Counted from the first letter of the stretch, positions 1,454 through 55,603 are shown. The stretch is 64,000 nucleotides of DNA from Candidatus Undinarchaeota archaeon (GCA_964636545.1 CAZWSR010000001.1:80007-144006); one strand, 5' to 3'. The notes: generated by a model from the letters alone, not told the origin. Translations and numbers: made by a program.

Positions 1454-1675
1454 ACGAATTCTAAACAGAATCACTTTTATACTAGAGAATTTTCTAATAA
1501 CAGTGCCAATGATGTACCGACATCGAGCTGATACTCCCAAATGATGATAGATGGGCGGGCAGAGGCAATATTTTTGAAATTGGTTAAGCTAGCAGCTTGC
1601 ATCAAAAATGAAAAAGAAAATTGAAAACACACCACAACAATAACCCTTATAAACCATCGCAGATTATTCAGAATT

Positions 1676-7113: not shown

Positions 7114-8436
7114 TCATTTTAGTAACCTCTTGTCTGATTTTCCCACTATATTTAACTTGCTGATAATCTGGTCAATTGAAAGAAGTTCTTGTTCGCCAGT
7201 TTCCATGTTTTTCAATGCGTATTTCTTTGCCTTAATTTCCTTTTCACCAATTATAACAACAAATGGAATTCCACTTGAGTTTGCAAAATCCAGATTCTTT
7301 GAAATACTTCTTGCTTTTGTATCAAAATCAGTATTGATTCCAGCTTTTCGAAGCTGCTGAGCAATTTCAATTGCTTTCTCATTACAATTTGGGAAATAAC
7401 ATACAAGTGCTTTGATTGCTCCTGATTTCTTTAATTTTCCAACTTGCTCAAGAACTTGAACTAAACGATCAATTCCAATTGAAAGACCTGTAGCTGGAAT
7501 TTTTTCTCCACCAGCAAGCGAAACTAAATTGTCAAACCGTCCGCCACCAGTAATTGAACCAATTTTCGCATCCTTTGCTTTGAATTCATAAACCATTCCA
7601 GTGTAATAAGCTAGTCCACGAGCCATGCTCAAATTCAATCTAAGATAATCAGAAATTCCATATGACTTTGCTAATTTGAAAAATTCTTCTAATTCAGCTA
7701 GTCCTTCTTTTGCAATATCATTCTTTGCAATATTTTTGGCTGTTTTCAGAACTTCAGTTGGTTTTCCTTCTGCAAGAAGTGCATTCAAAAGATTCCTACC
7801 CTTTTCTTCATCAAGTTTCTTGTCTTTCATTTCAGCAATAACTGCATCTTCTCCAATTTTGTCAAGCTTGTCAATGCATCTAAGTAAGTTTGGAACTTCT
7901 TTTTCAGTAAAACCATAATCAAGTGCAATTCCTTCAACAAGCTTTCTGTTATTTATGTCAACATAAAATTCTTTGAAATCTAATTCAAGCATTACATTAG
8001 TTGCGCAAGCAACAGCTTCCAAATCTGCTTCTACACCTTCTGCACCGAATGTATCAATATCTGCTTGCCAAAATTCTCTGTACCTTCCAGCTTGTGGCCT
8101 CTCGTATCTCCAAACCGGACTGATTATGAATCTCTTGAATGGTTTTGGTAATTGTGAATTATTTGCAACTAAACGTGAAGTTGGAACTGTTTGGTCAAAT
8201 TTCATTCCAAGCATTCTGCCGCTCTGATCTTTTAATGAAAAAATTTCTTTAGCAACTTCTTCTCCACCACCAGACTTTGCAGTAAGCAAACTTAAATTCT
8301 CAAGCGCTGGTGTCTGTATTTCGCGGAAACCGTATTTGGAATAAACAGTTCTGATAGTGTCGATTACATACCTGCGCTTTTCCATGTCCTCTGGTAAGAA
8401 GTCACGCATTCCTCGTGGTGTTTCAAATTTAGGCAT
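7114..8436 (-). CDS. hisS: histidyl-tRNA synthetase
   Basis: MPKFETPRGMRDFLPEDM... with class II aaRS motifs. AGGAGG SD is 7 nt upstream of the ATG at 8436. The track ORF extends upstream into the tRNA gene. Confidence 0.9.
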   Translation of the reverse strand: MPKFETPRGMRDFLPEDMEKRRYVIDTIRTVYSKYGFREIQTPALENLSLLTAKSGGGEEVAKEIFSLKDQSGRMLGMKFDQTVPTSRLVANNSQLPKPFKRFIISPVWRYERPQAGRYREFWQADIDTFGAEGVEADLEAVACATNVMLELDFKEFYVDINNRKLVEGIALDYGFTEKEVPNLLRCIDKLDKIGEDAVIAEMKDKKLDEEKGRNLLNALLAEGKPTEVLKTAKNIAKNDIAKEGLAELEEFFKLAKSYGISDYLRLNLSMARGLAYYTGMVYEFKAKDAKIGSITGGGRFDNLVSLAGGEKIPATGLSIGIDRLVQVLEQVGKLKKSGAIKALVCYFPNCNEKAIEIAQQLRKAGINTDFDTKARSISKNLDFANSSGIPFVVIIGEKEIKAKKYALKNMETGEQELLSIDQIISKLNIVGKSDKRLLK

Positions 8437-8440
8437 TTTT

Positions 8441-8477
8441 CCTCCTGTTAGCTGATAGCTGCCAGCTGTAAGCTGAA
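8441..8477. repeat. family-A tRNA-flanking octamer-word element (CAGCTAAC/TAGCTGAT words)
   Basis: Copies also at 8555-8600, 13217-13250, 18629-18686 and 55561-55596. Every copy abuts a tRNA gene. Confidence 0.6.
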
Positions 8478-8478
8478 A

Positions 8479-8554
8479 TGGGGCCCGGGCCGGGAATTGA
8501 ACTCGGGTCTGAAGATCCACAGTCTTCCATCCTAACCATTAGACTACCCGGGCC
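8479..8554 (-). tRNA. tRNA-His (GTG) with encoded G-1 and CCA
   Basis: Hand-folded: G-1, acceptor GCCCGGG/CCCGGGC, anticodon stem GAAGA/TCTTC, loop CTGTGGA, T-loop TTCAATT, discriminator C, CCA present. Confidence 0.85.
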
Positions 8555-8742
8555 AAATATATAGCTATCAGCTACCTGCTTGCAGCTAACAGAAATAGAA
8601 ACTTTCCTACTACTTAAAACTTTGTCAAAACTAAAACTAGACGAACTTCCTTGTTCAACAATGAAGGCAATCCCTTCTGTTCATCATAGTAGTGACATAT
8701 GCCATATTGGTAGTATATAAAGTTTGTTATGTTGGTTAAGGC

Positions 8743-8793
8743 GTCAGCCCTCGGCCCTCAGGTCCTGACTGCTGATGGCTGATACCTGACACC
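8743..8793. repeat. family-B GC-rich element GTCAGCCCTCGG...GCTGATGGCTGATACCTGACACC
   Basis: Four copies (8743-8793, 11508-11558, 21456-21519, 31453-31502), each within a few nt of a stop codon. Internal GTCAG/CTGAC inverted repeats. Confidence 0.6.
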
Positions 8794-8800
8794 TGTTTCC

Positions 8801-10362: not shown

Positions 10363-10410
10363 AGGTGCGAATAGGAAATCGCAGGTTATAAAGGTTAGGT
10401 TTTATTCAGA

Positions 10411-10481
10411 TAGGTAGTGGGTAGTAGGCAGTTGGCAGTAGGTCAGTTCCACTACCTAGTGCCCAGTGCCTACTGCCTGTG
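10411..10481. repeat. family-D GC-rich imperfect hairpin built of GGCAGTAGG / TAGGTAGTGG words
   Basis: Sits in the divergent promoter region between the SpoIIM-like gene and trxB. A second copy lies inside the dtdA ORF at 40491-40516. Confidence 0.55.
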
Positions 10482-11490: not shown

Positions 11491-11651
11491 AAAACAGGTG
11501 TCAGCAGTCAGCCCTCGGCAGTCAGGTGCCTGACAGCTGATGGCCGATACCTGATACCTTTCACAAATTTAACCAACACTGACATATGTCATTACTAACA
11601 ACACATAAATACTCTATTTATGTATGGATTAGCTAAGGAGGATGATTAAAC

Positions 11652-13169: not shown

Positions 13170-13263
13170 TAAAGAGTAGGAGGGTTGGGACTTATTTAAA
13201 GTTTGTTGAAAAATATCTGATAGCTGACAGCTGGTAGCTGTAAGCTTTAGCCAATTTCAAAAG

Positions 13264-13340
13264 ATGGTGGGGGTGCCCAGATTTGAACTGGGGACCACTT
13301 GCTCCCAAAGCAAGTATCATACCAAACTAGACTACACCCC
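13264..13340 (-). tRNA. tRNA-Pro (TGG), CCA encoded
   Basis: Hand-folded: GGGGGTG/CACCCCC acceptor, anticodon stem CTTGC/GCAAG, loop TTTGGGA, T-loop TTCAAAT, discriminator A, CCA present. Confidence 0.8.
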
Positions 13341-13449
13341 CGATGGTGTTTCCTGATGAACAAATTTCACACTTAACCAAGCGCGTTATAGCGGCGCAGC
13401 CGCATCTCATCCTCCGCGAGAAGGCGGAGCTACGAATACACCCCCAACT

Positions 13450-13620
13450 TTAGAAAATCGCGCTTCCGTATAGGTGTAGCAGAATTTCGACAACCACTAC
13501 TGTTGCTGCGAATCCAATAACATGTATTGGCTTGAACTTGAAACCACGACTTTCCTCACTACTGACGCGGAAAATTCCTCCGCCAGCACCCGGAATTGAG
13601 ACATTATTCTTTTTTGACAT
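13450..13620 (-). CDS. secG: preprotein translocase subunit Sec61-beta (SecG, archaeal)
   Basis: 56 aa MSKKNNVSIPGAGGGIFRVSSEESRGFKFKPIHVIGFAATVVVVEILLHLYGSAIF, the archaeal Sec61beta pattern. Too short for the ORF track. Confidence 0.7.
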   Translation of the reverse strand: MSKKNNVSIPGAGGGIFRVSSEESRGFKFKPIHVIGFAATVVVVEILLHLYGSAIF

Positions 13621-18414: not shown

Positions 18415-18626
18415 GGGCCTATAGCCTAGTCTGGATAAGGCGGCAGCCTTCTAACGGCCGCAAAATCGGCCGGCGCTTTGCGCTGCATTCAGCAGAACCT
18501 CAACAGGTTAAGCTGAAGCAGCGTGGCTCGCACACATAGGTGAAAAACCAAATATGTGCGCGCTCGCCGGACCTTTGAGGTTTGGAAGAGAGCTGCAAAT
18601 CGGGGGTTCAAATCCCCTTGGGCCCA
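18415..18626 (+). tRNA. tRNA-Arg (TCT) with about 137-nt intron (about 18454-18590) at canonical 37/38
   Basis: 5' exon GGGCCTA-TA-GCCT..AGGC-G-GCAGC-CTTCTA. 3' exon A-GCTGC-AAATC-GGGGG-TTCAAAT-CCCCT-TGGGCCC-A. Intron GAAG pairs with exon CTTC (BHB-compatible). Confidence 0.75.
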
Positions 18627-18698
18627 TCTCAGCTAACAGCTACCTGCTAACAGCTAACCTGTTCTGGTAGCTGGAAGCTGTAACCAACAATTAGCATT

Positions 18699-18775
18699 GG
18701 GCCTGTAGTGTAGCTTGGATATCACGGGAGGCTTCGGACCTCCAAAGCGGGGTTCAAATCCCTGCAGGCCCACCA
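18699..18775 (+). tRNA. tRNA-Arg (TCG), CCA encoded
   Basis: GGGCCTG/CAGGCCC acceptor, anticodon stem GGAGG/CCTCC, loop CTTCGGA, T-loop TTCAAAT. Confidence 0.85.
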
Positions 18776-18815
18776 ATACACCCATTTAAAAACTAATCAA
18801 ACATAGAGGTTAAAT

Positions 18816-20561
18816 ATGGTAACAGATCCTTGGCAAAAAGCAAGAGAAGATGTCACAAAAGCAGTGGCAGAAGTTATACCTCAATTGGCAATCCCAAAAA
18901 CACGATTAAAGAAAATAAAGCTGGTAAACCACATTGATGAGCCACCTAGCTACAAAATGGGAGACCTTGCTTGTAGTATTTCATTTCCATTTGGAAAAAT
19001 AAAAAAAGTCAGTCCAAGGAAGATTGCAGAAGATATTATTGACAAAATTCACAGACCACGCAGTGTTTACTTAATAAAACTGGCAGGTGCATATGTTAAT
19101 TTTTTCCTGAAATTCGGAGAATTTGCAAAAGCGGTTGTTACTGAAGCATCAAAAGATACTTTCGGAAAAGGCGAGAAAAAGAAAGAGAAAGTAATGATTG
19201 AGTACAGTCAGCCAAATCCACTAAAAGCATTCCACATCGGACATGTTAGAAATACTGTTCTTGGAGAAAGTTTGAGCAGAATAATGAAAGAAGCTGGATT
19301 TGATGTTATTCAAGCAAATTTGTTTAATGATATTGGAATGCATGTTGCAAAAACACTGTGGTGCTACAAGAAATACCACGATGGAGAAAAGGCGCACACT
19401 AATGTTTCTAAATGGATTGGAACAATTTACAGAGATGCTTGCAAAAAAATTGAAGAAGATCCTAAAAACAAAGAAGAAGCAGATGAAATTCTAAAACATT
19501 TAGAAGCGCAAGATAATGAGGAAATCACTAAATTGTGGAAGCAATTCAGAAAATGGAGTGTTGATGAGTTCAAGGAAATTTACAAAGAATTAGATGCGCA
19601 CTTTGATGTTGACTTTTATGAAAGCGATTTGAAACCAAGAGGAAGAGAACTTGTTGAAGAGCTGAAGAAAAAGAAAATCGCGAAAAAGAGTAAGGGCGCC
19701 ATTATTATTGATTTGAAAAAAGATGACTTACCAGTTTGGTTGTTGCTGAAAAGTGACGGAACAGCACTTTATTCAACACAAGACCTTGCACTTGCTGAAG
19801 AAAAATTCAAGAAATTCAAAATTGACAAGTCAATTTATGTTGTTGGGTCAGAGCAAAGATTGCATTTCCAGCAATTGTTTAAGACATTACAGAAAATGGG
19901 TTTCAGAAAAGCAAAGAAATGTTACCATTTGGCATATGCTTTGGTTGCTTTGCGAAGTGGAAAAATGTCATCCAGAGAAGGAACCGCAATATTATATTCT
20001 GATTTGAAACATGAAATGCTCAAAAAAGCAATGAATGAAGTTGCTGAGAGAAACCCTGAAATGGCTGTAAAAACTCAGAACGAACTTGCTGAAAAGATAA
20101 TGATGTCTGCTATGAAATACAGCATGCTTAATGTTGGAAACAACAAGACAATCTTTTTTGACTGGGACACTGCACTTGAATTTGAAGGTAATACTGGACC
20201 GTACTTGCAATATGCAACTGTTCGTGCAAAAAGAATTTTGGAGAAAGCTGGCAAGAAACCAACACTAGCTGGGATTCAGTTCAAGTTATTGGATAGTAAG
20301 GATGCACAGCGCTTAATAAAACAAATAGCAAAACTGCCATCTGTGATAAGAGAAGCTGCAGAAACATACCAACCACATATTATTTCAAATTACGCATATT
20401 CTTTAGCTGACAAATTCAGCACATTTTACACAACAAATCCAGTTATTGAGGCAGAAACACCTGAACTAAAAGCAGCTCGGATTGCACTAGTAAACGCAAC
20501 ATATAAAACCCTCCAGAAAGCCCTTTATCTCCTTGGAATTGAAGAGCCAAAGAGGATGTAG
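18816..20561 (+). CDS. argS: arginyl-tRNA synthetase
   Basis: Class I HIGH motif (AFHIGHVRNT) and a DALR-type C-terminal region, 581 aa. Confidence 0.9.
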   Translation: MVTDPWQKAREDVTKAVAEVIPQLAIPKTRLKKIKLVNHIDEPPSYKMGDLACSISFPFGKIKKVSPRKIAEDIIDKIHRPRSVYLIKLAGAYVNFFLKFGEFAKAVVTEASKDTFGKGEKKKEKVMIEYSQPNPLKAFHIGHVRNTVLGESLSRIMKEAGFDVIQANLFNDIGMHVAKTLWCYKKYHDGEKAHTNVSKWIGTIYRDACKKIEEDPKNKEEADEILKHLEAQDNEEITKLWKQFRKWSVDEFKEIYKELDAHFDVDFYESDLKPRGRELVEELKKKKIAKKSKGAIIIDLKKDDLPVWLLLKSDGTALYSTQDLALAEEKFKKFKIDKSIYVVGSEQRLHFQQLFKTLQKMGFRKAKKCYHLAYALVALRSGKMSSREGTAILYSDLKHEMLKKAMNEVAERNPEMAVKTQNELAEKIMMSAMKYSMLNVGNNKTIFFDWDTALEFEGNTGPYLQYATVRAKRILEKAGKKPTLAGIQFKLLDSKDAQRLIKQIAKLPSVIREAAETYQPHIISNYAYSLADKFSTFYTTNPVIEAETPELKAARIALVNATYKTLQKALYLLGIEEPKRM

Positions 20562-20572
20562 ATTCCAAAACT

Positions 20573-20647
20573 ACCACCGTAGCCTAGTTTGGATAAGGCG
20601 TTTCCCTCCTAAGGAAAAGGTCGAGAGTTCAAATCTCTCCGGTGGTG
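20573..20647 (+). tRNA. tRNA-Arg (CCT)
   Basis: ACCACCG/CGGTGGT acceptor, D-stem GCCT/AGGC, anticodon stem TTTCC/GGAAA, loop CTCCTAA, T-arm GAGAG-TTCAAAT-CTCTC. Confidence 0.8.
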
Positions 20648-20697
20648 CTCTTTATTTTAAAATTAAACAGGACGAACCAATTTCTACAGAATTGTTT

Positions 20698-21449: not shown

Positions 21450-21542
21450 AGACAGGTAACAGCCCTGAGCCCTCAGGTGTCAGGTCGTCCTGACTGCTGA
21501 TGGCTGAATGCTGACACCCTAACCAATTTCAAAAAAGATGAG

Positions 21543-31422: not shown

Positions 31423-31577
31423 CTTGGATAACGAATTTAGTTACTTTGGTATCGGCTGTCAGCCCTCAGCAGTCAGGGCCTGATGGCTGAATGCTGACAC
31501 CTTAACCAATAGGGCAAACCTTTATATACCAAATACACTACTCCAAAGTAGTGACAAACGTCACTGGTGGTTAAAAA

Positions 31578-32423: not shown

Positions 32424-32429
32424 AGTTTT

Positions 32430-32497
32430 TTAGAGTTTAGATTTTGGAATTTAGAATTTAGAGTACTCCAAATTCTAAACTCTTAATTCCAAATTCC
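32430..32497. repeat. family-E AT-rich palindromic element of GAATTTAGA octamers
   Basis: Left arm of tandem (g)a(g/a)tttaga units, right arm of tctaaatt complements. Second copy at 48650-48717. Confidence 0.55.
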
Positions 32498-32555
32498 ATT
32501 CAGAAAATATTAACAAAACCCAACACTATTTATAAAAAAACAAACTAGCCCCACT

Positions 32556-39448: not shown

Positions 39449-40153
39449 CTACATTTCGATTTTATATTTTTTAAAATCCTTAATTGCTTGTTGATCGCGA
39501 TTTGAGTTCTTGTAGTCAGTATATTTCAAATCAACAACAACATCAAATCCAAGTTCCCGGAACATTTTTGCATAAGTGCGAACGCAAGCACCGAATTCGA
39601 CACCCGTTATAAAGATAGCATGGTCATCTTTGTGTAGAGAATGGTCAATACAAATTTGTGTGACAACAGCTTTTGGCCATGGCCATTTTTTATCTTCTTC
39701 CAATTCCTCACCATCTTTTTTAACCTCTCCTTTTCTTGGATCAATGTAGAATTTCCGGTAAGTAACATATTTTTCATCAAAATGAACAGGAATAAGAATT
39801 GGTTGTTTTTTCCCTCGTTCAGTAAACTGAGCATAGAAAAGTTTTTCCATGGCTCTGTACATTTTTGGATCAGTAAGCTGAACAGGCCAAGGCCTTGTTT
39901 CTTGAACTTCGTCGAAAAGAATTTTGAGGGGGCCGTGATCAAATTCTGACTTGCTAGAAGTATCTAAAATTATTATAGGTTCTTCTTTGGAATCAATTAA
40001 TTCCTCCATTTTCTTTACATGCTTGGAAAAATCCTTTTTAGTCTCAATATTAAATGATCCTGCATTTGGATGCACAAGCACATAGACATTCGTTTTGCGA
40101 CCCATAACATTTTTAATATGGTAGAGGAAGTATATAATTCTTAACATGAACAC
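39449..40153 (-). CDS. isochorismatase-family-like hydrolase (divergent)
   Basis: C-terminal AIFITGVEFGACVRTYAKMFRELGFDVVV resembles the isochorismatase Cys region. Confidence 0.45.
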   Translation of the reverse strand: MFMLRIIYFLYHIKNVMGRKTNVYVLVHPNAGSFNIETKKDFSKHVKKMEELIDSKEEPIIILDTSSKSEFDHGPLKILFDEVQETRPWPVQLTDPKMYRAMEKLFYAQFTERGKKQPILIPVHFDEKYVTYRKFYIDPRKGEVKKDGEELEEDKKWPWPKAVVTQICIDHSLHKDDHAIFITGVEFGACVRTYAKMFRELGFDVVVDLKYTDYKNSNRDQQAIKDFKKYKIEM

Positions 40154-40967
40154 AAAAATCCTTTACTGGACCAAGAATCCAGCAGCTCAGAATATTATGA
40201 AACAGTTTAATGAGCTTGGAGTAGATGTAGAAGTTTTTGAAACAGAGAAGGATTTTTTGTATTTGACTGATGAGGATATTAACGGGGCGCAGGGGCGCAG
40301 GGGCGCAGGGGCTCAGACTGATTTATTGATATTTCCAAGCACGCACAAGAGCGCTGCAAATAAAAAGTCATTAACTATTCACGCTACAGGTAATTTTGGG
40401 AATGCTGATTATGGTGGAGAGCCAAAGAAATTGAATCCAACAAGTTCTGAGGCGATTGCAATAGGACTACGCAGTATGGCGAATCAGGCACTAGGTAGTA
40501 GGCAGGGGGCAGTAGGTTTTGAAGTTTGTTTGGAAGTAACACATCATGGACCGACAATTAAAACTCCGTTAGTTTTTATTGAAATTGGTTCAACTGAAGA
40601 AGAATGGGGAAATGTGGAAGCTGGGAAGGTTATTGCAAATGCTATTAAGGATATTATTGAATACCTCAAACCCCCAACCCCAAACCCCAAACCTTTCACA
40701 AACTACATCGGCTTCGGCGGTCCTCACTATGCACCAAGCTTTACAAAAAAAATTATTGAAAATGAGAATATTGCAATTGGCCATATTTTGCCAAAATATC
40801 AGCAAGATAATGTTACTAAAGATATTATTCAGCAAATGTTAGATGGAAGTAATGCAAAGAAAGCTGTTTTTGATTGGGATGGAATGAATTCTGAGCAGAG
40901 GAATAAGGCTGTTGGGATTTTAGATGAGTTGGGGATTGAGTGGTGTAAGACAAAGGAATTAGTTTAA
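40146..40967 (+). CDS. dtdA: D-aminoacyl-tRNA deacylase, archaeal type (DtdA)
   Basis: THHGPT, FIEIGSTEEEWG, GFGGPHYAP, IGHILPKY as in Pyrococcus DtdA. Two GC-rich repeat insertions lie in frame. Confidence 0.8.
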   Translation: MNTKILYWTKNPAAQNIMKQFNELGVDVEVFETEKDFLYLTDEDINGAQGRRGAGAQTDLLIFPSTHKSAANKKSLTIHATGNFGNADYGGEPKKLNPTSSEAIAIGLRSMANQALGSRQGAVGFEVCLEVTHHGPTIKTPLVFIEIGSTEEEWGNVEAGKVIANAIKDIIEYLKPPTPNPKPFTNYIGFGGPHYAPSFTKKIIENENIAIGHILPKYQQDNVTKDIIQQMLDGSNAKKAVFDWDGMNSEQRNKAVGILDELGIEWCKTKELV

Positions 40968-48602: not shown

Positions 48603-48713
48603 TGTGAAATAGTATAGCGCCTAGTGTATTTAAGAGTTTTGTCAAAATGGAGTTTGGAGTTTAGAATTTAGAGTTTAGAGTAACTCCAAATTCCAAAATC
48701 TAAATTCTAAATT

Positions 48714-50021
48714 CTACGGAGTTAATCTCTTAGCATCTCTTGGGAACAAAACAGCTTCCCGTACATTTGGCAAGCCAAGCATGACCATAACCAATCTGTC
48801 AACACCAATAGCCCAGCCAGCATGTGGCGGCATTCCGTATTTGTAAAACTCAATTGTTGATTCAAAGCCCTTTGGATTCATGCCTTTTGATTTCAAACCA
48901 GCAATGTACATGTCAGGATCGTGGATTCTGCGGCCACCTGAAGCTAATTCCATTCCTTCAAAAATTAAATCAAATCCGTATGATAGTTTTTTGTCTTTCT
49001 CATGTGGGTGGATGTAGTACGGTTTTTGCTCCATTGGCATTTCAGAAACTATCACAGGCCCTTTGTAAAGTTCTTGAATTATTCTCTCTCCCTCAGGTGG
49101 GATGTCCTCACCCCATTTTAGTTTAAGTCCTTTGCCTGCAATTTGTTTTAGAATTTCAGTATAAGTTTTCACAACCATTTTCTTTGGCTGAGTAAGTGTG
49201 ACTTTGAGGGTTTCAAGTTCTTTTTTGCAATTCTTTGCAACATCTGAGTAAATTCGCTTTAGGATGCCTTCTGCAACTGACCAAGTTGCTGTTTCATCAA
49301 CAAAACCCATTTCAATATCAAGTTGTGTTACTTCTGCTAAATGTTGAGTTGTGTCAGATGGTTCTGCGCGGAATACCTGACCAATTTCAAATACTTTTTC
49401 AAAACAAGATGTCATTAATTCTTTGTAGATTTGCGGGCTTTGTCGCAAAAATGCTTCTTTATCAAAATAATTAATTGGGAAAAGTTCTGCACCACCTTCT
49501 GTGGCGCTTGCAATCATTTTTGGTGTCTCAATTTCGCGGAAATCGCCTTCAGTTAGGTAATCGCGAGCTGATTTAAGAACTTGAGCGCGAATTGCGAAAA
49601 TTGCCGATATTCGTGGTTTTCGGAGGTCAAGAACACGTGCGTCAAGGCGTGTGTCAAGCTCTGCCAAAACCTTCTCATTTACTTCAAGTGGTAGTGGTGT
49701 TTTGGACTTGTTTAGCAAAAGAATGTCGTCCAGGATGACTTCAACGCCCCTGTTTGTCTTATCTGTCTTTTTTACTGTTCCTTTTACTGCGACAGCAGAC
49801 TCTCGTGTGATTTCTGAGAGTTTTTCAAAGGCCTTTGGTGCATTTTTCTTAAGAACCGTTACTTGAGCATCGCCTTCGCGGTCTGCAAGAACTAGAAAAG
49901 CTAGGTTTCCGTGGAGGCGAACGTCTCGCAACCAACCCATTAATGTTACTTTTTTCCCATCTAGAGCTGGAACTATTTCATTAGTGAAGTGTGTTTTAGT
50001 CCAGTTGGATAGTGAGTCCAT
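48714..50021 (-). CDS. aspS: aspartyl-tRNA synthetase (archaeal/eukaryal type)
   Basis: OB-fold N-terminus, class IIb motif 2 FRAEPSDTTQHLAEVTQLDIEMGF, motif 3 GMPPHAGWAIGVDRLVM. Confidence 0.9.
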   Translation of the reverse strand: MDSLSNWTKTHFTNEIVPALDGKKVTLMGWLRDVRLHGNLAFLVLADREGDAQVTVLKKNAPKAFEKLSEITRESAVAVKGTVKKTDKTNRGVEVILDDILLLNKSKTPLPLEVNEKVLAELDTRLDARVLDLRKPRISAIFAIRAQVLKSARDYLTEGDFREIETPKMIASATEGGAELFPINYFDKEAFLRQSPQIYKELMTSCFEKVFEIGQVFRAEPSDTTQHLAEVTQLDIEMGFVDETATWSVAEGILKRIYSDVAKNCKKELETLKVTLTQPKKMVVKTYTEILKQIAGKGLKLKWGEDIPPEGERIIQELYKGPVIVSEMPMEQKPYYIHPHEKDKKLSYGFDLIFEGMELASGGRRIHDPDMYIAGLKSKGMNPKGFESTIEFYKYGMPPHAGWAIGVDRLVMVMLGLPNVREAVLFPRDAKRLTP

Positions 50022-55485: not shown

Positions 55486-55560
55486 AGCGGGGTAGGGCAG
55501 CCTGGAGTGCCCGTCGGGCTCATAACCCGGAGGTCGGTGGTTCAAGTCCACCCCCCGCTA
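55486..55560 (+). tRNA. initiator tRNA-Met (CAT)
   Basis: A1:U72, anticodon stem TCGGG/CCCGG with three G:C, loop CTCATAA, T-arm GGTGG-TTCAAGT-CCACC. Confidence 0.8.
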
Positions 55561-55603
55561 CTCATCAGCTATCGGCTAACAGCCAACAGCTATCAAACTT
55601 GTT

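Follow-up and report, generated by a model that had tools for sequence, protein, structure and literature searches.

What are the short, degenerate repeats that adjoin tRNA genes in this Candidatus Undinarchaeota DNA, and do they act on those tRNAs? In the 64,000-nt stretch that was analyzed (the window), a first-pass annotation had described five such elements, here family A, as octamer arrays tied exclusively to tRNA ends, and had proposed a tRNA-processing, termination or promoter element or a tRNA-targeting mini-element. The window has archaeal traits (TATA-type promoters, Sec61-beta, archaeal DnaG and an intron-containing tRNA) and is 99.9–100% identical to MAG GCA_030751255.1 and JGI metagenome 3300048645. 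Among named relatives of its ArgS, HisS and DnaG, those closest to it are DPANN archaea (Undinarchaeales, Naiadarchaeales, Aenigmarchaeota, Woesearchaeota), at 42–55% identity.

Tandem heptamers beside tRNA genes

All five family-A elements were found at the coordinates assigned to them, and a 30-nt core is indeed common to the tRNA-His and tRNA-Pro trailers (Table 1). The unit, which had been read as an octamer, proved in a period scan to be a heptamer, with four to five tandem copies of CAGCTNN per array. Autocorrelation across the window gave 13 segments at lag 7 and 0–4 at the other lags from 4 to 12. Among 23 units compared, CAGCT (positions 1–5) hardly varies, position 6 varies in part (mostly A) and position 7 is free. 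Scanning for CAGCT at a 7-nt period with at most one mismatch per unit, we counted 13 arrays of at least three units (0.35 expected from Markov shuffles) and eight of at least four units, compared with none in 100 Markov shuffles; CAGCTNNCAGCT with at most one mismatch matched 26 times, compared with 3.7 ± 2.2 expected. CAGCT arrays are absent from the negative background, 825 kb of unrelated loci from a metagenome scan with GdhA (GdhA relatives at ≤60% identity), where lag-7 segments are also about nine times rarer per kb. The arrays are thus real and non-random, and every family-A array lies within a non-coding spacer.

Some simple accounts of the arrays were rejected. AGCT is not depleted (296 observed, 278 expected), which speaks against restriction-site avoidance or clustering, and TTAACCAA is not an enriched word, with only seven copies compared with ~4.7 expected. 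At the gathering score, Rfam returned nothing but tRNAs in the window and no family over the arrays, nor did any Rfam family lie over the bacterial arrays described below, which dismisses a known RNA family.

Table 1 Family-A arrays, neighboring tRNA genes and related features. Positions refer to the window unless a relative is named.
Feature	Position	Strand	Details
Degenerate A-like remnant, 2 units	1573–1600 (units 1586–1597)	+	TTTGAAATTGGTTA-AGCTAGCAGCTTGC, 3' of ferredoxin ORF
Family-A array, tRNA-His 3' trailer = hisS 5' UTR	8445–8478	-	TTT-CAGCTTA CAGCTGG CAGCTAT CAGCTAA CAG-GAGG; four heptamers at 8448–8475
tRNA-His(GTG)	8479–8554	-	G-1 and CCA encoded
Family-A array, tRNA-His 5' leader	8556–8592	-	tRNA-sense CTGTTAGCTGCAAGCAGGTAGCTGATAGCTATAT; complementary to trailer array; heptamers 8562–8589, read on + strand: TAGCTAT CAGCTAC CTGCTTG CAGCTAA
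Family-C hairpin (GGYAGTN units)	10409–10480	.	divergent spacer; in L214, array with different units at same position
Family-A array past tRNA-Pro	13213–13261	-	AAGCTTA CAGCTAC CAGCTGT CAGCTAT CAGATAT at 13213–13247
tRNA-Pro(TGG)	13265–13341	-	ARAGORN/Rfam
tRNA-end duplications with inserts	13342–13455; L204 9995–10110; L213 100–197; L220 13440–13545	- (window)	
tRNA-Arg(TCT), ~137-nt intron	18415–18626	+	aragorn -i
Full family-A hairpin between tRNA-Arg(TCT) and tRNA-Arg(TCG)	18630–18687	+	left arm 18630–18657: CAGCTAA CAGCTAC CTGCTAA CAGCTAA; right (inverted) arm GGTAGCTGGAAGCTG at 18666–18680; flank TAACCAA
tRNA-Arg(TCG)	18699–18775	+	argS (18816–20561) 40 nt later
Family-B hairpin (TCAGSNN) with CTAACCAATTTCAAAAAAGA module	21470–21533	.	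directly 3' of tRNA-Arg(GCG)
Other family-B copies	8741–8800, 11493–11560, 31440–31510		
Family-D hairpin (TTTAGAN units)	32427–32499	.	second copy 48643–48722
tRNA-Met(CAT), initiator-type	55486–55561	+	
Family-A array, tRNA-Met trailer = 187-aa ORF 5' UTR	55566–55596	+	heptamers 55566–55593: CAGCTAT CGGCTAA CAGCCAA CAGCTAT; ORF ATG ~55604

tRNA genes were called with ARAGORN under default and intron-aware (aragorn -i) settings and with Rfam; intron-aware ARAGORN finds eight in the window. The first of the two tRNA-Arg genes that the annotation had placed around the spacer element is real, an intron-containing tRNA-Arg(TCT) that both default ARAGORN and the Rfam gathering search miss. Its counterpart in the relative L204 carries a shorter intron, placed elsewhere in the gene, with a LAGLIDADG-like ORF just upstream.

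All five family-A arrays lie 3–26 nt from a tRNA end, and three arrays, counting relatives, start exactly 3 nt past a tRNA 3' end. With about 10% of non-coding bases no more than 80 nt away from a tRNA, p is ~1e-4 for the four independent loci (post hoc), and across nine loci of the lineage, where non-coding arrays number 14 at lag 7 and 0–4 at other lags, 5 of the 14 lie near tRNAs compared with 10% expected (p = 0.01); these p-values are optimistic because the family was defined after the data were seen. The genomic scope of the association is ~82 kb, that is, the window plus 18.5 kb of flanks added by walking from its ends. These flanks contain neither a tRNA nor an array, which agrees with the association but does not decide it.

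The clustering of the five arrays at tRNA ends therefore holds in the window, but the exclusivity claimed for it does not. A degenerate two-unit remnant follows a protein-coding gene, with no tRNA near it and with the same TTTGAAATTGGTTA module beside it as at family A, and tRNA-Gln and tRNA-Arg(CCT) have no array. Nor do the arrays constitute a tRNA-specific family. They fall within a genome-wide heptamer-periodic class, represented in the window by families A, B, C and D, all in spacers, with B, C and D mostly in tRNA-free ones; the CAGCTNN arrays of bacteria are not tRNA-linked.

Most members of the three sister families form stable predicted hairpins (z −4 to −6), and several of their arrays lie just upstream of TATA boxes or past stop codons. 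The four family-B copies are clearly homologous dispersed repeats, and no covariation or compensatory changes occur among their hairpins, so a covarying structure was rejected. The B copy at tRNA-Arg(GCG) is placed like the A copy at tRNA-Pro: the two share a T-tract/GAAATTGGYTA module, and at both genes the T-tract comes before the array. An exact 14-mer, TTTGAAATTGGYTA, has exactly three copies, at 1573–1586 (+), 13248–13261 (-) and 21520–21533 (-), each just past a gene 3' end with a T-tract before it and heptamer units after it; it may be a terminator-associated module. Separately, an octamer array (GGGGCGCA ×4) and a CCCCAAA-type heptamer array, at 40279–40320 and 40660–40699, lie in or beside a predicted ORF (40146–40967).

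Gain and turnover of the arrays among relatives

The closest relatives are L204 (ArgS 84% identical), L210 (HisS 85%) and L213 (HisS 82%). Gene order is kept among these close relatives at tRNA-Pro/gdhA, at tRNA-Arg(TCT)/tRNA-Arg(TCG)/argS/tRNA-Arg(CCT) and at tRNA-His/hisS, and none of the three has a CAGCT array at the orthologous loci. The Arg/Arg spacer measures 72 nt in the window and 9 nt in L204, in which the tRNA-Pro trailer also passes directly to the gdhA promoter. The tRNA-His trailer is 42 nt long in the window and 23 nt in L210, and the tRNA-His leaders and trailers of L210 and L213 are short and plain. When the region upstream of tRNA-His is aligned, the leader array appears as an insert at one variable spot, between conserved promoter-proximal sequence and the tRNA. 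Since close relatives keep the loci without arrays, the arrays are 22–62-nt lineage-specific gains, and therefore no conserved processing, promoter or terminator signal. At the level of sequence, this comparison shows that the gain was recent and species-specific. For annotation, family-A arrays are accordingly repeat insertions, not conserved tRNA signals.

The loci themselves link tRNAs with synthetase genes. tRNA-Arg(TCT) and tRNA-Arg(TCG) precede argS, and tRNA-Arg(CCT) lies 11 nt past the argS stop (18415–20648); tRNA-His lies 42 nt upstream of hisS, which in relatives is followed by the his operon (hisG, C, D, B, A, F). Such cognate linkage is kept in L204, L202, L210, L211 and L214 and suggests tRNA-synthetase(-pathway) co-transcription units.

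We also compared more distant relatives, at 77–79% and 70% identity. The words of family A, absent as CAGCT arrays from the closest relatives, are replaced by other units in the distant ones. At tRNA-His of L214, the leader consists of YTGRTATC ×4 and the trailer of TTTCAGC TGTCAGA GAGCAGA TATCAGA, and the tRNA-Met trailer of L220 reads TTTCAGA TATTAGA TTTCAGA GGACAGA. Past tRNA-Arg, GCTTTCNN and GTTTTCGAG hairpins are found in L202 and L204, and further arrays of other units occupy kept positions in the SpoIIM/Pyr_redox spacer (L214) and past the Pyr_redox ORF (L204). These cases show that arrays recur at the same junctions across species while their unit sequences turn over.

One trait persists through this turnover in some trailers. 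Five of the 8 trailers in the window and 2 of 16 in relatives, namely L214 tRNA-His (from the scan) and L220 tRNA-Met (read by eye), have CAG in a 7-nt phase in at least 3 of 4 units; among random 70-nt segments the frequency is 0.14%. In all seven CAG-phased trailer arrays the motif is on the sense strand, a hint that they may act as RNA where a tRNA adjoins an ORF.

The explanation we consider probable is that family A is a sub-family of fast-evolving, often palindromic, heptamer-periodic intergenic repeats, gained beside tRNAs and with a possible RNA role. The gains were insertions or expansions of 22–62 nt into pre-existing tRNA-adjoining spacers (tRNA-His leader and trailer, Arg/Arg, Pro-gdhA and tRNAi-Met-ORF). 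The arrays may have grown by slippage or template switching, with the core presumably kept by selection.

The same events could also have left functionless by-products, namely microsatellite-like expansions in decay that arose through slippage or template switching where heavily transcribed tRNA genes stall replication forks, and that are tolerated in unconstrained spacers. Such a neutral origin is possible, though we doubt it. It accords with the array-free orthologous sites of the closest relatives, with the fast turnover of unit sequences between species, with the presence of the same arrays in many bacteria in varied contexts, and with the fact that heptamers, which have been ascribed to polymerase slippage, dominate the simple repeats of many prokaryotes (PMC4679880). 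Against it, variation is concentrated at positions 6–7 (mainly 7) while CAGCT is nearly invariant, and the arrays are therefore not in uniform decay; the sense-strand CAG bias extends to 7 of 7 trailer arrays, and different species have arrays at the same junctions again. Length polymorphism is likewise absent: two strains that are 99.88% identical, a very small divergence, have no indel, SNP or change of unit number in the arrays, and hypervariability was rejected on this comparison. The same lack of variation gives no sign of active slippage, a point against the explanation preferred above. If the arrays are neutral, they are a record of a tRNA-associated mutational process.

The mini-element proposed earlier corresponds to a second alternative, in which families A and B are REP- or MITE-like non-autonomous elements moved in trans and preferring tRNA-adjacent sites. 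What speaks for mobility is that copies are insertion-like, ending fairly sharply and differing in presence between species; L204, L210 and L213 lack them at the orthologous sites, the kind of insertion polymorphism seen with MITEs. Dispersed copies share 25–30-nt cores at ≥80% identity and a common end module (YTAACCAA and TTTGAAATTGGYTA), and family B supplies four clear homologs. REP/BIME elements and MITEs are likewise scattered intergenic repeats, small and imperfectly palindromic, that some species have and others lack. A REP/BIME is an imperfect palindrome of 20–40 nt; here the Arg-spacer copy and families B–D form palindromes, the Pro and Met copies being single arms. However, comparing filled with empty sites revealed no clear terminal inverted repeats or target-site duplications, and no RAYT or transposase gene was found in the Pfam annotations of ~34 kb of the region, both in contrast to REP/BIME elements and MITEs. 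Unit number and arm content also vary, with some half elements and one full hairpin, and the internal 7-nt periodicity of family A is no REP feature. Viral contigs gave no real match, and a viral origin was rejected: one search pattern had no matches and the other a single chance match, in a region with neither array nor tRNA. Taking both sides together, we regard a mobile origin as unlikely.

tRNA-targeted insertion does appear to occur in the lineage, a further point for mobility. A tRNA's own 5' or 3' end is copied (9–19 nt) around 65–100-nt inserts that adjoin the intact tRNA (Table 1), and the inserts upstream of the window tRNA-Pro and of L204 tRNA-Arg(GCG) are 77% identical. These duplications look like footprints of, or mini-elements from, tRNA-targeted insertion.

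Predicted structures and the tRNA-to-gene junction

At the tRNA-His locus, the trailer array begins 3 nt past the encoded CCA and ends within the hisS Shine-Dalgarno sequence (hisS ATG at 8436). Leader and trailer arrays are complementary over ~40 bp, with a predicted duplex of −40.6 kcal/mol, compared with −16.1 ± 3.8 kcal/mol for shuffled leaders, none of 300 of which was as good. The predicted duplex takes in GGAGG, the hisS ribosome-binding site. In L214 the corresponding duplex is marginal, with 24 of 300 shuffles doing equally well, and none was found in L210 or L213.

Further upstream of tRNA-His lies a conserved block (8640–8725 (-); L210 2140–2240; L213 1–60; L214 9660–9745), which combines a promoter (AAACTTTAAATA) with the palindrome TGACAnATGTCAC and a ~45-nt ATGAACAGAAGGGATTGCCTTCAYTGTTGAACAAGGAAGTT that contains a hairpin and an AUGAUGA box. 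This block could be a non-coding RNA, or it could serve the tRNA-His/hisS/his unit as a regulatory leader.

The other copies differ in their predicted structure. Inverted copies can form hairpins, as had been proposed: in the Arg spacer, CAGCU pairs with AGCUG, followed by a 2x2 internal loop and then by CAGCUACC/GGUAGCUG, in a predicted fold of −25.8 kcal/mol (z −4.1). The Pro and Met arrays, as single arms, are predicted to be weakly self-structured on the sense strand, and the Met array folds better as antisense (−16.4 kcal/mol) than as sense (−8.1 kcal/mol). The order at the Pro locus is tRNA-CCA, TCTTTTGAAATTGGCTA module, five heptamers and gdhA promoter (AAACTTTAAATAA); an oligo-T tract precedes the array, which may therefore lie outside the tRNA transcript.

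These arrangements bear on the proposal of a tRNA-processing, termination or promoter element, in its strongest form a dedicated signal, with the arrays guiding RNase P, RNase Z or the splicing endonuclease to the tRNA or ending its transcription. The location at tRNA ends and the exact 3-nt offset of three arrays from the tRNA 3' end are what such a signal would lead one to look for. The tRNA-His helix also resembles rRNA leader-trailer helices and archaeal bulge-helix-bulge stems in its complementary flanks and its length (PMC11404451, PMC7714728), but it flanks a tRNA, is built of simple repeats and is not conserved in the closest relatives. A bulge-helix-bulge (two 3-nt bulges on opposite strands of a 4-bp helix) is absent from the predicted structures, which contain only symmetric 2x2 loops, and a splicing-endonuclease site was ruled out on these predictions. 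Relatives with near-identical tRNAs have no conserved arrays at orthologous tRNAs, and within the window tRNA-Gln and tRNA-Arg(CCT) do without them. Against a terminator speak the Pro copy, which lies beyond the oligo-T tract, and the absence of any T-tract after the arrays; against a promoter element speak TATA boxes that are separate from the arrays. We consider a dedicated maturation or termination signal very unlikely, and the arrays would not be a sequence-specific tRNA maturation signal.

Any effect of the repeats that we favor, fast-evolving heptamers gained beside tRNAs, would most likely be exerted as RNA. The arrays would be transcribed within tRNA precursors and tRNA-mRNA co-transcripts and could serve as spacer or stem modules at the junctions between tRNAs and downstream genes. 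Complementary arrays would pair, giving a leader-trailer helix around tRNA-His over the hisS ribosome-binding site and a hairpin between the tRNA-Arg genes, and single arrays would become the CAG-phased 5' UTR of the downstream ORF after tRNA excision. Points against this reading are the better antisense fold of the Met array, the oligo-T tract ahead of the Pro array, a His duplex that is strong in this species only and the lack of compensatory changes in family B. If the arrays are functional, tRNA processing would be tied to the expression of neighboring genes, which would provide a handle on the roles of heptamer repeats.

A more specific possibility is that the arrays are a platform on which a multimeric RNA-binding protein or nuclease binds or cuts CAG(CU) heptads and so controls how stable the downstream ORF (e.g. 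hisS) is or how well it is translated. Candidates are a Csp/S1-like protein, an Sm-like protein or aCPSF1, which is a CA-preferring beta-CASP nuclease. A conserved 5-nt core next to a free spacer position would suit repeated protein contacts, as would a motif that is strand-specific in trailers. The arrays also stop 7–14 nt short of the hisS and 187-aa ORF start codons, and likewise in L214 and L220, and the TAACTGA repeats upstream of bacterial start codons offer a parallel (PMC4679880). On the other side, no candidate protein was identified, and the closest relatives live without the arrays. The Pro copy and families B, C and D lie outside 5' UTRs, and bacterial arrays occur in either orientation to start codons. 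Such a platform seems improbable to us. It is not mutually exclusive with the neutral or the REP/MITE-like mobile reading.

The broadest form of this idea, that heptad-phased CAG arrays are a lineage-wide RNA platform coupling tRNA excision to the stability or translation of downstream genes, including hisS, strikes us as quite a long shot. If it were true, the TCAG/CTGA heptamers of unrelated bacteria (TAACTGA, MTYCTGA, TCAGCTN) would point to a widespread, undescribed heptad-recognition system.

Relation to heptanucleotide repeats and other known systems

We searched one genome per species with a four-unit CAGCTNN pattern and obtained at least 120 loci, compared with ~17 expected by chance. 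Among the matches listed, all are bacterial (Acidobacteriota, Planctomycetota, Omnitrophota, Bacteroidota and others); an inverted partner accompanies many of them, and many lie beside start codons, in both orientations. Only 1 of the 129 bacterial arrays listed lies within 150 nt of a tRNA, and a general tRNA link of CAGCTNN arrays was rejected on this count.

Bacterial heptanucleotide repeats are abundant, often lie just upstream of start codons and are of unknown function (PMC4679880, PMC2700814, PMC4692102). Family A has the head-to-tail 7-nt units of such repeats, at least 3–4 copies per array, an excess over base composition, many arrays and an intergenic location; its units, however, are not near-identical but differ mainly at positions 6–7. 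It resembles bacterial LSSR (Mrazek et al. 2007), cyanobacterial STRR and the Geobacter 'four tandem heptanucleotide' in having 7-nt units in ~4–5 copies, and shares with them the intergenic location, the many families per genome and the favored heptamer (PMC4679880, PMC2700814, PMC4692102). Unlike LSSR and STRR, family A is archaeal and enriched at tRNA flanks, and has imperfect units, a fixed 5-nt core and often inverted arms. The kind of repeat is thus already known, and the archaeal, tRNA-flank-biased variant of prokaryotic heptanucleotide repeats is new. Few unexplained non-coding features of prokaryotes are as common as heptanucleotide repeats, for which family A provides a compact, testable archaeal case.

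A close parallel is the TAACTGA repeat of marine Beggiatoaceae (MacGregor 2015, PMC4679880), which occurs as 2–6 direct copies mostly a few nt upstream of start codons and has been proposed as a post-transcriptional site. The family-A His and Met copies similarly occupy the 5' UTR as far as the ribosome-binding site or the start codon. An array end within a few nt of a start codon is seen at the hisS and 187-aa ORF copies and at the L214 and L220 trailers, but not at the copies beside tRNA-Pro, in the Arg spacer or in the His leader. The reverse complement of TAACTGA, TCAGTTA, contains the TCAG theme that is common to families A and B. The family-A unit differs in being CAGCTNN, in the opposite orientation relative to the ORF, and its UTR starts at a tRNA 3' end. 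The short tandem repeats linked to tRNA genes in Entamoeba (PMC2652664) also fill tRNA spacers and evolve fast between species; they belong to a eukaryote with large tandem tRNA array units and have no heptamer hairpins, so that homology is not implied.

The bacterial arrays themselves follow the imperfect pattern (N)TCAGCTN, often with an inverted partner 20–60 nt away, in Acidobacteriota and many other bacterial phyla (L002–L121). One of them lies between the 23S and 5S rRNA genes (L022, 7082–7106).
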